The position numbers were made by a program, and so were the translations under genes. Below the pieces are notes generated by a model. That model was not told the DNA's origin. It did not search any database and worked only from the letters and a program-made list of their open reading frames with translations. A DNA stretch of 24,974 bases from Deltaproteobacteria bacterium (GTDB lineage Bacteria; Desulfobacterota; Binatia; UBA9968; CAXXLF01), in assembly GCA_022571535.1 (NCBI GenBank), contig JACZXR010000001.1, positions 1 through 24,974 on the forward strand, in the 5' to 3' direction. Of this stretch, positions 18,001-20,900 are shown in pieces (positions within the stretch are counted from its first letter, which is position 1; every line of letters starts with the position of its first letter).

Positions 18001-18075
18001 GGTTAAAGATATTTTCCGACTGGGTGAGATCAGAACGACGTCGAGAGGGCAACAGTAAACGGGCTGCTGAGCCAT
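17974..18075 (-). pseudogene. Possible truncated remnant of the toxin partner of the addiction-module antitoxin
   Basis: The ATG is coupled to the antitoxin stop (TAATG). The 33-codon ORF MAQQPVY... occupies the usual ParE/RelE position but is far too short and runs into the era promoter region. Confidence 0.35.
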
Positions 18076-18299
18076 TACCAGCCAGAGATTCTACGGCGGG
18101 CTTCAAACCACGGAACAGGCTTCACAGTTCCCGAATCAAGCTCCCTCAGTCGCCGATCTATTTCAGCGTGCCAAGCCGCTTCCGCATCTTCGTCCACCTC
18201 TTGGTCGAGACTGTCAAGAAGAGATCCAGCAAGCGCAGCTCTCGCTTCTGGCGGAAGCTTGAGGGCCTCTTTCAGCAGGTCATTTGGGTCTTGCTTCAT
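18075..18299 (-). CDS. Putative addiction-module antitoxin (TIGR02574-like), cassette gene
   Basis: ALKLPPEARAALAGSLLDSL...AWHAEIDRRLRELDSGTVKPVPW is typical of this family. Confidence 0.85.
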   Translation of the reverse strand: MKQDPNDLLKEALKLPPEARAALAGSLLDSLDQEVDEDAEAAWHAEIDRRLRELDSGTVKPVPWFEARRRISGW

Positions 18300-18306
18300 A
18301 CTGCCA

Positions 18307-18336
18307 ATCCTAGACCCCTAAGGTGGCTTGTATCAA
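18307..18336 (-). promoter_or_regulatory. Putative internal cassette promoter (leaderless transcript)
   Basis: TTGATA-N18-TAGGAT, with the -10 ending 7 nt before the antitoxin ATG and no Shine-Dalgarno sequence. The -35 overlaps the last base of the attC R' box. Confidence 0.45.
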
Positions 18337-18383
18337 TCTAACATCTAGGCTGACCCGCTATGTCGGGTCAAGCCGACTTAGGT
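18336..18383 (-). mobile_element. attC site 1 (degenerate, 48 bp)
   Basis: - strand: ACCTAAG TC GGCT[T]GACCCG ACATAG CGGGTCAGCC TAGAT GTTAGAT. It has a hairpin with an extrahelical base in the left arm and a canonical R', but R'' is damaged. It lies 9 nt after the HNH stop. Confidence 0.75.
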
Positions 18384-18392
18384 TGCTCCGTT

Positions 18393-19070
18393 TCATGCGC
18401 TGCCTGCCACTACACGAATCCTGCAGCGTGTAATGAACTCGACACCTTCGTAGAAGCCGAAGACCCACAGCGAGGAGGGACTGCCAGGCCGGAGATATCC
18501 GGCGTAGCGAAATACATCACCGCCGACCGAGCCGCTCCTGCTGGGCGACGAGAGAAAGGCCTTTCGCTCTGATGGCATGCCGGCCAGATCAGACAGCGAG
18601 GGAGCGACTCTCCACTCGATCTCGCACTCCTGCAAAACGACTCCATTGTCGTGCCACAGAAGGCCTCGCGTCAGGCGTGAGAAAAAACGATCCAGCACGG
18701 GCTGATTGAGGTTGAAGGCCACGCTCCTTCCAACATGCAGGCCGCCGGGTGTCCTGATCTCCACGGGCGTTAGGCTGTCGAGCAAATGCTCGACATGTTT
18801 CCCTCTCCGCTGGTTGACGTCTCTCTCCAACGACCGATCTCTCCGGGCCGCTACGTGACCCAAAACGGCCGGGTGGGACTCCGTAGAGGCAAGCGAGGTC
18901 AGGAGGTTTCGTACTCGCTCGTCATCCCGCCCGTGATTGACGTTGCACTGGCGGCAGCTCGGCACAGTAATAGCGTCGGCAGGCGGCTTCGGAAAGAGAC
19001 AGAGGGGCGGAACGTGGTCATGGTCGGATGCATCAACTCTACCACAATAGACACATGATGGTTTGATCAT
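18393..19070 (-). CDS. HNH endonuclease-like Zn-binding protein with an uncharacterised C-terminal domain, cassette gene
   Basis: N-terminal CVYC...DHDHVPP...VPSCRQCN. Start ATG 19070 (or GTG 19076), directly after the R' remnant. Confidence 0.75.
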   Translation of the reverse strand: MIKPSCVYCGRVDASDHDHVPPLCLFPKPPADAITVPSCRQCNVNHGRDDERVRNLLTSLASTESHPAVLGHVAARRDRSLERDVNQRRGKHVEHLLDSLTPVEIRTPGGLHVGRSVAFNLNQPVLDRFFSRLTRGLLWHDNGVVLQECEIEWRVAPSLSDLAGMPSERKAFLSSPSRSGSVGGDVFRYAGYLRPGSPSSLWVFGFYEGVEFITRCRIRVVAGSA

Positions 19071-19086
19071 ATTCACAGTAACCTAC

Positions 19087-19799
19087 ATGGGGATAGGGAG
19101 GGGCCTCACGGCCTCCCCCCTCCCACACCACCGTACACACAGGTCACGTATACGGCGGTTTCGGCAGATTGGGTCGATGTAATGTGCAGTACCCCAACCG
19201 GAGTGTCTTTGCTCGTATCGCCAGGCGTGGGTTCATCCCAGACGCCGAATCTCAGTCCAACGCCTCGCCGGATGCCATCTCGCACCTCCGCCACAAGTGA
19301 CGACTCCTCTCTTTTGATCCCTTCCGGGAACCGTTCGGGCCTTCGTCTGCAATCGTTACGGCTCGGCCTATCTGTTGCTCCACCTTTCGGCCCGGAGTGC
19401 CTCACTAGCTTCGCCTGCCTGCAGCCTATTATGCCCTCTGCTGACTTCTCCTATGGGGTCAACATCGATTGCTCGATGTTCAGCCAGTTTCCGTCGCACG
19501 TGACTTCCCAGGGCACATAGGAGATCTCCCCGGGTAAGACACAAAACTCTCCGTGCGTAGACGCCGGATTTATAAAGCCCACCCAATGCGCGGATGGAGG
19601 ACTTCGTTGTCACGTGCCAACTCGTCCCGGGGTACCACACCTCCTATCCGGTTCCTGTTCGTCGCCCCGCACTTTTGGATTGGTCTTCCTTCAGACCCCA
19701 CCTCACGATGACGCTCTTGCCCTTCTCCTAGCCTTCGGCTCCGCTTACACCTGGCGTCAGGACTTTCACCCGACTAGTTCTGTGCCATGCCCGGCACAC
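19087..19799 (-). mobile_element. ORF-less class IIC group II intron (713 nt) inserted in attC site 2
   Basis: 5' end GTGTGCCGGGCATGGC. IIC-type domain V ACCGCCGTATACG...GTACGGTGGT (19127-19159) with the CGC triad. Domain VI and 3' end GGGAGGCCGTGAGGCCCCTCCCTATCCCCAT. GAGAAGTCAGCAGAGG and GAAGGCCCGAAC flank DIII. No reverse-transcriptase motifs in any frame. Confidence 0.9.
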
Positions 19800-19856
19800 A
19801 CGCCCAGCATCAGCCGCCGCGCCGCTAGGCGTGGTCGGCTGCATGCAAAGTTAGGA
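19800..19856 (-). mobile_element. attC site 2 (interrupted; the rest of R' lies at 19081-19086)
   Basis: - strand: TCCTAAC TTTG CAT[G]CAGCCG...CGGCTGATG CTGGGC GT | intron | GTAGGT. It begins 15 nt after the stop of the upstream cassette gene. Confidence 0.85.
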
Positions 19857-19871
19857 GGCAGCCTGGCTTAG

Positions 19872-20834
19872 TTAACACGAGAGCACTCTAGCGACCTCGG
19901 TCAAGTCCGAGAAAACCTCAACCCTGTATTTCTCACGCAAACCCGTCTCCTCGGTCACCCTCGCCCAGAATCGCTCGACGACTACGGCGTCACAATATGG
20001 TATCGCCGTCACTAAGTGGCCGATATCGCTGACGTCGTTTGACTTTATGGCCCGCGACCACTGGCGATCGCGGTAGAGTGTCAACTCGCAGTCAACATCG
20101 AGGGACGGTACACGGGACCAGAACTCCATCAAACCGTCTAGCCCAAGACCAAGGAAGTCCTCGAATGTCTTACCAATGGCGGTGAGGGCGGCAGTGATGT
20201 AGTGTTGCAGATCATAAGTGTACCCAGCAAGTTGTGCCCGCCTGTGCACAACCTTGTCGTAGGGTTTTCTCACCGCCCGCACAGATTCTGCGGCCTGAGC
20301 GTTCGGCCTGCCCAGCTCGGAAATATGTTGCTTCTGCCGAATCCGTCCAGGCTCGTTAGGAAACGTCAACAAATCGAATAACGCCTCGGGCTGCGCCGCG
20401 AACCAACTTAAGCGTTTCAGGTCCAGATCGCTCCAATGCGCGGGAAACTCGCTACGTCCCCTCGGACCGACTCCAAATAAGAATCCACGGCCCAACGTTT
20501 CCGGCGGAGGAGGCATTTCCGACGATCCGAAGGTTTGGGACACTGCTCGTGATATCTCGATGGGCAGTATGTCGTTCCAAGCGGCAATGAACCACCGACG
20601 ACTGAACCGTTCAAAGACTTCAGCTAGGCGCTCGCGCCTGCCGGGCTCCTCCGCTCGCAGATGTTCGATCAGATGGATCACGCCGAGAGGCAGCCGAACC
20701 TCATCACGATCGACTCGGCTCAGGAGGTCCTCCGCCACCGACTTGTGAGCAGGCTTGTGGGGCCTACCCCAGAACGCTTTGGCAAGGTAGATCCAATGAT
20801 TCTGATCGAGAAAGATGTATCTCGGATTCGACAC
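19872..20834 (-). CDS. Hypothetical PIN-like domain protein, cassette gene
   Basis: YIFLDQNHW at the N-terminus and NDVSDIGHLVTAIPYCDAVVVE near the C-terminus resemble the PIN acidic tetrad with a large insertion (inference). GTG 20834 follows AGGA. The track's start at 20873 lies inside attC3. Confidence 0.7.
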   Translation of the reverse strand: MSNPRYIFLDQNHWIYLAKAFWGRPHKPAHKSVAEDLLSRVDRDEVRLPLGVIHLIEHLRAEEPGRRERLAEVFERFSRRWFIAAWNDILPIEISRAVSQTFGSSEMPPPPETLGRGFLFGVGPRGRSEFPAHWSDLDLKRLSWFAAQPEALFDLLTFPNEPGRIRQKQHISELGRPNAQAAESVRAVRKPYDKVVHRRAQLAGYTYDLQHYITAALTAIGKTFEDFLGLGLDGLMEFWSRVPSLDVDCELTLYRDRQWSRAIKSNDVSDIGHLVTAIPYCDAVVVERFWARVTEETGLREKYRVEVFSDLTEVARVLSC

Positions 20835-20846
20835 AGTATTCCTGCC

Positions 20847-20900
20847 GCCTAACGTCAAGGCTGAGGAGCGCAAAGCGTCTCCTCAAACCAGTGGTTAGGT
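20847..20900 (-). mobile_element. attC site 3 (intact, 54 bp)
   Basis: - strand: ACCTAAC CACT GGTT[T]GAGGAG [A] CGC TTT GCG CTCCTCAGCC TTGAC GTTAGGC. Canonical R''/R' boxes and two extrahelical bases. Confidence 0.9.

Follow-up and report, generated by a model that had tools for sequence, protein, structure and literature searches.

Class C group II introns that target the attC sites of integrons have been characterized as bottom-strand elements, which lie opposite to the direction of cassette transcription and insert at TTGT/T in the R'' box (PMC3001079, PMC7923331). The integron literature views attC-associated group II introns as antisense insertions in the bottom strand, which prevent transcription of the cassettes and provide promoters directed outward. 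A top-strand, same-orientation IIC intron was reported from Enterobacter cloacae in 2012, as cited in PMC7923331. Group II introns lacking an open reading frame (ORF) are described in reviews as rare in bacteria and as almost invariably sharing a genome with RT-bearing relatives (PMC4424553).

Two class 1 integrons containing blaIMP-4 (L157 and L160) display the bottom-strand arrangement. The ltrA gene of their intron is antisense to blaIMP-4, qacG2, aacA4, and catB3; its 5' exon ends in TTGT, and its 3' exon reads TAGAAAT and then continues into the blaIMP-4 stop codon in reverse complement, an arrangement that puts the intron in R'' of the bottom strand. We take this intron to be Kl.pn.I3. 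The literature and these integrons thus agree with the premise of the original prediction for the present locus, namely, that characterized IIC-attC introns do the opposite of what is seen here.

The window analyzed here is an entire contig of 24,974 bases from a metagenome-assembled genome (MAG) that is 81% complete. Its intron is a new ORF-less environmental member of an already known intron type, and it is very likely derived from a IIC lineage that retrohomes into the top-strand attC hairpin, between the GT and the T of the R' box (GT/TRRRY, with the slash denoting the insertion point here and below).

Identity, ends, and fold of the intron

A search of the window against Rfam places a group II intron of 713 nucleotides (nt) on the minus strand (19799-19087). 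Three families contribute to the assignment: RF02001, whose full model is covered (minus strand, 19712-19539; 121.3 bits, E = 9e-25), RF01998 (minus strand, 19482-19338; 45.8 bits), and RF00029, which represents domains V and VI (DV/DVI) and was matched at a laxer threshold (minus strand, 19160-19087; 35.9 bits, E = 3.8e-5), its score falling below the gathering score of 40. The first two matches identify the fold of domains I to IV as that of the IIC type. The RNA begins with GUGUGCC (19799) and terminates with CCCCAU (19087), in agreement with the GUGYG...AY rule for class C ends, and these boundaries are set by 19 homologous 5' junctions, 12 homologous 3' junctions, and the intron of plasmid pR148, which is described below.

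In the RF00029 alignment, domain V (19158-19128) contains the CGC catalytic triad, and domain VI, which extends to 19087, contains a bulged branch adenosine at 19094. Pairing in the lower stem of domain V is preserved by a two-sided change, from GUG/CAC in pR148 to GUA/UAC in the window, as judged by eye. Domains I to III are 86 to 88% identical to those of relatives. Across 17 relatives, the D1d helices are paired in 99.3% of cells and show compensatory changes in 11 of 16 pairs, and the D1d helix of the window intron has one mismatch and one deletion. As in other class C insertions, a stem-loop lies directly 5' of the junction, and a short IBS1 is present without an IBS2; the EBS1 of the window intron has the potential to form 2 to 4 pairs only. 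On the minus strand, no ORF of more than 99 amino acids (aa) is found within the intron.

The interrupted site and its cassette array

The genes in the intron region of the contig are all situated on the minus strand and comprise a Phd/ParE pair (21791-21231; gene calls and Pfam), a 333-aa ORF, a 227-aa ORF, era, der, ogt, dprA, and topA. The cassette ORF upstream of the intron (19872-20873; up to 333 aa) has its stop codon 16 nt 5' of the R'' box of attC2, the interrupted site, and the downstream cassette ORF (18393-19076; 227 aa) has an ATG at 19070, 16 nt 3' of the intron; neither has a Pfam match. Two further sites on the minus strand flank these ORFs: attC1 (20847-20899; CCTAAC ... GTTAGGC; fold z score, -3.7) and attC3 (18336-18382; CCTAAG ... 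GTTAGAT, with an imperfect R''; fold z score, -3.8). Each of the three attC sites lies downstream of a minus-strand ORF and has R'' and R' boxes around an imperfect palindrome, whose extrahelical bases are in the R''-L'' arm. No integron integrase was found in profile searches of the contig and the MAG (the best TIGR02249 match was 81 bits, against a cutoff of 265), and the array is therefore classed as a CALIN.

Two of the ORFs in this region have additional features. The N terminus encoded by the 227-aa ORF has a CxxC ... CxxC spacing that resembles an HNH or zinc-ribbon motif. A 74-aa ORF situated 3' of attC3 (18075-18299, minus strand) looks like a small addiction-module antitoxin and may be a fourth cassette; there is no clear attC between this ORF and era.

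The 5' exon part of attC2 (19855-19800, minus strand), as delineated by its sequence, its DNA fold, and comparison with its attC family, consists of R'' (CCTAAC, 19855-19850), a bulged L''/L' stem, the spacer TGGGC, and GT (19801-19800), and the remainder of R' (GTAGGT) occupies 19086-19081. The intron thus interrupts attC2 behind GT, at a point one base downstream of the G/TT crossover of IntI, with 7 nt between the end of the hairpin and the intron junction. The sequence bears out the original prediction of an intron inside R', one base from the crossover and co-oriented with the cassette ORFs.

The window reading, ...TGGGCGTGTGTGCC..., offers two possible GTGTG intron starts. In pR148 (NC_019380), a relative interrupts the attC of aadA1 as ...CTCAAGCGT/GTGTG...CCCGAT/TAGATGC; the intact aadA1 attC reads ...AAGCGTTAGAT, and the split in pR148 is ...AAGCGT/intron/TAGAT. 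In relatives inserted at terminators, TT or AT takes the place of GT at the last two exon positions. Both comparisons assign GT (19801-19800) to the exon, where it had been placed originally, and rule out a 5' boundary two bases further upstream (GTGTGTG...).

Joining the window exons produces GCGT-GTAGGT, which is GTTAGGT with one extra G (19086). This extra base, which had also been pointed out in the original prediction, is real: T follows ...TGGGCGT in 120 of the 122 listed metagenomic copies of the attC family, and T is the first base of the 3' exon in 11 of 12 related 3' junctions, with G occurring in the window and in one relative. Because of the extra G, exact excision would fail to restore GTTAGGT, and the efficiency of the second splicing step may be reduced. 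A search for EBS3 in the window intron returned no confident location; the D1d segment 3' of EBS1 hardly differs from its counterpart in relatives whose 3' exon begins with T, indicating that the extra G is not due to a changed EBS3.

The intron is in the top strand of attC2

attC sites are near-palindromes, in which RYYYAAC...GTTRRRY can be read on both strands, and independent tests of strand are therefore needed. Three such grounds (the directions of ORFs, the unpaired bases of the 5' arm, and a relative in a site of known polarity) establish that the minus strand of the window is the top (coding) strand of attC2, as had been argued from this locus originally.

A scan of metagenomes with a pattern derived from the attC2 stem recovered at least 122 copies on 120 contigs (L163-L282), making the family, GCATGCAGC...GCTGATGCTGGGCGTT, extremely common in metagenomes. 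Among the 122 listed copies, the consensus is YCTAAC-AACA-stem-TGGGC-GTTRRRY, and 111 have 44 nt between the anchors. When read in the direction of the window minus strand, the longest ORF upstream of the listed copies is sense in 61 cases, antisense in 2, and ambiguous in 31, and the sense ORFs stop a median of 29 nt before the attC stem. Downstream of the listed copies, 39 ORFs are sense and 8 are antisense.

The folded DNA gives the same polarity. On the minus strand, attC2 has an unpaired G and two unpaired A residues in its 5' arm, and an unpaired C and A occupy the 5' arm in the top strand of the aadA1 attC, a site of known polarity. Among the loci listed, the excess of unpaired bases falls in the 5' arm of 46 of 57 GT-type target hairpins and in the 3' arm of 4, and 12 of 17 terminator-type targets have no arm asymmetry. 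In pR148, intI1 is divergent, and qacL, blaOXA-10, aadA1, the intron ltrA, qacEdelta1, and sul1 are co-directional; the pR148 intron and the window intron share 79% identity across bases 1 to 278 (domain I). Entry between the GT and the T of a top-strand R' makes the intron co-directional with the cassette genes.

Since attC sites are nearly palindromic and inverted cassettes exist, the same arrangement might be read as a classical bottom-strand IIC-attC intron flanked by cassette ORFs that are inverted relative to their own attC sites. We consider this very improbable, given the 61:2 ratio of ORF directions around the 122 listed copies, the unpaired bases in the 5' arm, an exon that ends in CGT and not TTGT, and the known polarity of the pR148 site. 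Moreover, inversion would have to account for three consecutive ORFs and a toxin-antitoxin pair that are all on the minus strand.

EBS1 and the choice of strand

The last four exon bases, GCGT (19803-19800, minus strand), constitute IBS1. The candidate EBS1, GCGC (19591-19588, minus strand), is in the 3' strand of D1d, between the inner D1d helices and the closing helix, in a stretch that is unpaired in RF02001, and it can form four of four pairs with the exon GCGU, including one G-U pair. In a solved IIC retroelement, EBS1 is a four-base loop at this place and is preceded by the delta nucleotide (PMC10190682). By this analogy, the position assigned to EBS1 in the window intron is probably correct.

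The surrounding structure that had been proposed for EBS1 fared differently. The predicted hairpin loop, GCGCATT (19591-19585), exists, but the stem said to close it, TCCATCC/GGGTGGG, is peculiar to the window copy. This stem was rejected, since no compensatory changes support it and one of its base pairs is possible in just 1 of the 17 sequences. A competing long-range D1d helix has compensatory changes in 6 of 8 pairs and is paired in 99.3% of cells across 17 relatives.

The original prediction went further in proposing a previously unrecognized mirror-image lineage, in which a retuning of EBS1 to the GCGT of the top strand would dictate strand choice. In its favor, the geometry and the lineage are real, GCGC matches GCGU at all four positions, and reviews describe bottom-strand insertion only (PMC3001079, PMC7923331). 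Comparison of 24 relatives, 23 of which are preceded by CGT, nevertheless makes this proposal improbable. EBS1-IBS1 pairs form at positions 1 to 4 in 23, 24, 14, and 4 of the 24 relatives, respectively, and when exons are shuffled among introns, the mean number of pairs is 66, as opposed to the 65 observed, so there is no covariation. In 10 of the 24 relatives, EBS1 is GCA(A), which fails to pair with CGT at its third position and is a better match to the bottom-strand TTGT. The only informative co-change occurs in L046, which combines a TTGT exon with a TCAA EBS1. An ACG or GCG core pairs with CGU and UGU alike, and EBS1 therefore cannot set the strand; the loop-closing stem, as noted, is unconserved, and the top-strand habit itself has the precedents given below. 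The location and the four pairs of the candidate EBS1 consequently stand, but its retuning does not. The strand is more likely to be determined by the geometry of the hairpin, as read by the ribonucleoprotein (RNP), than by EBS1.

Among the introns inserted at CGT, L004, L005, L006, L011, L070, L075, L107, and L119 have GCAA at EBS1, which is the complement of TTGT with one G-U pair.

Lineage and distribution

Of 401 genomes from the same phylum, 72 were matched by the window intron in blastn searches. An 18-base motif from its 5' end fetched at least 120 loci from species-representative genomes, the motif itself selecting for this type of 5' end. Among the loci listed, 98 junctions had enough flanking sequence to be classified: 63 have GT after a hairpin, 17 have the T-rich tail of a terminator, and 18 fall into neither class. 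Also among the loci listed, 38 of 57 GT-type target hairpins have AAC on the 5' side of the stem, and CGT-type junctions are preceded by a sense ORF in 32 cases, an antisense ORF in 8, and an ambiguous one in 18. The listed hosts of GT-type introns include Marinobacter, Methylobacter, Gallionella, Nitrotoga, Halomonadaceae, Desulfobacteraceae, Desulfosarcinaceae, and Syntrophales, as well as members of the Nitrospirota, NC10, Zixibacteria, Verrucomicrobiota, Planctomycetota, and others.

In a tree of 19 RT proteins, the CGT-type introns, including that of pR148, form a clade (ultrafast bootstrap, 94; SH-aLRT, 97). The blaIMP-4 intron, which is the sole representative of the classical IIC-attC lineages in this tree, falls outside the clade, and the terminator-type introns L028 and L161 are its nearest outgroups. 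None of six plasmid matches (H18, H21, H33, H44, H45, and H52) is in an integron, and H45 (L161) lies behind a terminator-like hairpin.

The flanks and the tree also bear on whether a terminator-targeting IIC intron might have made a one-off, ectopic insertion behind a chance hairpin in the window. The same 5' motif is present in many terminator-targeting introns of the Bacillota, and the nearest outgroups in the tree are of the terminator type, as that scenario would have it. However, the recurrence of GT after attC-like hairpins at 63 of the 98 listed junctions, the frequent AAC 5' of the stem, and the same GT/T junction throughout refute it, and we give it almost no credence. As the original prediction had it, the window intron belongs to a lineage and is not an isolated event, and that lineage is apart from the blaIMP-4 intron in the RT tree.

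The claim that the lineage is new was not borne out. The top-strand geometry at the aadA1 attC occurs in pR148 and in seven further plasmid records, and the 2012 E. cloacae intron cited in PMC7923331 was likewise described as a top-strand, same-orientation element. The pR148-type intron is probably the "unusual" E. cloacae intron of Rodriguez-Martinez, Nordmann, and Poirel (2012, J Bacteriol 194:150). Within the searchable literature, we found neither the breadth of the top-strand habit in environmental genomes nor its ORF-less derivatives, and there are moderate odds that the top-strand lineage as a whole is under-described.

ORF-less and miniature derivatives

Full-length relatives of the window intron are 1.77 to 1.91 kb in length (e.g., L107, L126, and L129). 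Of the RT proteins encoded by these elements and their kin, the two that were tested against Pfam, those of the pR148 and blaIMP-4 introns, contain RVT_1 and GIIM domains only. In the window intron, the site of the RT/maturase gene is occupied by a domain IV remnant (19345-19160, minus strand), which was delimited by blastn against the full-length L107 and by alignment of ORF-less copies: the start of domain IV is retained, and about 120 nt replace the ORF. The remnant is colinear with that of L112, a 733-nt intron in a gammaproteobacterial MAG that is approximately 70% identical from end to end, and with that of L009, a 590-nt intron in a second genome of the same phylum as the window. As far as sequence comparison goes, the colinearity of these remnants suggests a nonautonomous, ORF-less sublineage that crosses phyla, as opposed to independent deletions.

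Other ORF-less copies range from 448 to 841 nt. There are also miniatures of 177 nt (L012), 219 nt (L017), and 138 nt (L019), which keep approximately 80 to 114 nt of the 5' end and 45 to 65 nt of the 3' end (DV/DVI); these are still situated at CGT/T behind attC-like hairpins and are like MITE-style deletion remnants.

The window intron is present as a single copy in the MAG, and a profile search of this 81%-complete MAG found no GIIM match. The only RT signal in the MAG is an RVT_1 fragment on another contig (G000:C533:1-1698; L032), where the start of an RT gene is cut by the contig end; it adjoins a group II intron of a different type (RF02005, 71.6 bits).

Taken together, the survey raises the wider prospect that top-strand, sense targeting of attC is characteristic of a widely distributed clade of IIC introns (in Pseudomonadota, Desulfobacterota, Nitrospirota, Planctomycetota, Verrucomicrobiota, Zixibacteria, and others) whose ORF-less and miniature derivatives spread between phyla, such that cassette transcripts are regularly interrupted by spliceable introns and occupancy commonly freezes attC. 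We advance this generalization tentatively, holding it to have slightly less than an even chance of being correct in full.

Occupancy and splicing

The locus around the intron (18900-20100) is present nearly unchanged (0.82 to 0.85 of sampled words) in marine and sediment metagenomes from at least nine studies, indicating that the host or this island is distributed widely in marine sediments. Both intron junctions are crossed by DNA contigs assembled from two marine-sediment metagenomes of separate studies, and no contig that skips 19799-19087, as a spliced or empty site would, was present in two DNA and two RNA-library runs. Occupancy is therefore fixed across the populations sampled. Most of the intron pieces recovered from the RNA libraries come from relatives of 90 to 95% identity, rendering these libraries uninformative on splicing. 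Among the 122 listed metagenomic sites of the attC family, none is occupied by an intron.

The window intron could be an inert relic, mobilized once and no longer able to splice, whose only effects are to block attC2 and to separate the downstream ORF from upstream transcription. The lack of an ORF and of a cognate RT in the MAG, the single copy, the extra G at the 3' splice junction, the mismatch and deletion in D1d, the subthreshold RF00029 score, and the absence of a spliced joint in the RNA runs are all consistent with this possibility. Conversely, domains I to III retain 86 to 88% identity to relatives, a change on both sides of the helix has preserved pairing in domain V, neither the catalytic elements nor the branch A is missing, metagenomes from at least nine studies carry almost the same sequence, and the MAG is only 81% complete. 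On balance, we view an inert relic as quite possible, falling just short of probable.

A model for insertion and its consequences

With respect to how the element arrived, insertion by a lineage that retrohomes into top-strand attC hairpins remains the reading that we favor with high confidence. Counted against it are the extra G, the lack of a spliced or empty site, the absence of EBS1-IBS1 covariation, the single copy, the lack of a cognate RT, the single classical lineage in the RT tree, and the missing intI.

Based on solved structures of IIC retroelements (PMC10190682), the RNP would dock on a stem-loop of single-stranded top-strand attC DNA and on the short spacer that follows it. Pairing would then take place between EBS1 (GCGC, 19591-19588) and GCGU at the end of the 5' exon, and between EBS3 and the base that opens the 3' exon. 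If the general biology of IIC introns applies, reverse splicing would insert the intron RNA at the GT/T boundary, where it would be fixed by cDNA synthesis. Because the window copy has lost its RT/maturase gene, a related RT/maturase is likely to have moved it in trans, and the intron is probably now immobile in this genome.

With R' split, the R''/R' duplex needed by IntI should not be able to form, and attC2 would be inactive. Since attC2 could not fold as a recombination substrate, the 333-aa and 227-aa cassettes would be locked together; attC2 is probably dead, and its flanking cassettes probably behave as one unit. Because the intron is in the sense orientation, its splicing from cassette mRNA is conceivable, and it could leave read-through cassette transcripts if splicing has been retained. 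A sense lineage would differ from the bottom-strand introns of the integron literature in being excisable from cassette mRNA and in traveling on the side of the crossover that belongs to the downstream cassette, although the R box is still split. The survey suggests that this top-strand lineage is common in environmental arrays and has given rise to protein-less derivatives, of a kind said to be rare in bacteria.

Comparison with known systems

The classical IIC-attC introns, S.ma.I2 and the blaIMP-4 intron, share with the window intron a class C ribozyme, an attC hairpin as target, and, in full-length members, an RT that lacks the En domain, and they likewise split an R box one base from GTT. 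They differ in being inserted in the bottom strand at TTGT/T in R'', antisense and between a gene and its own attC, whereas the window intron is sense and lies at GCGT/G(T) in R'; their 5' ends also differ, GTACGCC... in the classical introns versus GTGTGCC in the window. As the class was delineated by Quiroga and Centron and by Leon and Roy, the window intron thus possesses its insertion in attC but neither the bottom-strand, antisense orientation nor the TTGT/T position in R''.

Terminator-targeting IIC introns (B.h.I1, O.i.I1, and the E.r. retroelement of PMC10190682) resemble the window intron in recognizing a hairpin, a short spacer, and an IBS1 of 3 to 4 nt, and in having EBS1 in the unpaired strand of D1d. 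The first 18 intron bases are also common to both, but it was by this motif that the loci were fetched. Unlike the target of the window intron, terminator targets are symmetric hairpins followed by a run of T, with a U-rich IBS1. Bacterial ORF-less group II introns (PMC4424553) are similarly ribozymes without an RT gene and are presumed to depend on an RT acting in trans; these sit with RT-bearing kin, whereas searches of the MAG of the window yielded no IIC RT.

The closest system is the intron in the aadA1 attC of the class 1 integron on the IncC plasmid pR148, which has the same GT/T insertion point in the top-strand R', the same orientation, the same ends, and an EBS1 with the GCG core of the window intron. 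The pR148 intron encodes a 444-aa RT/maturase (RVT_1 and GIIM), has a clean T at position +1, and resides in a mobile integron that includes intI1. In contrast, the window intron lacks an ORF, is followed by an extra G at +1, and resides in the chromosomal CALIN of a marine-sediment MAG.
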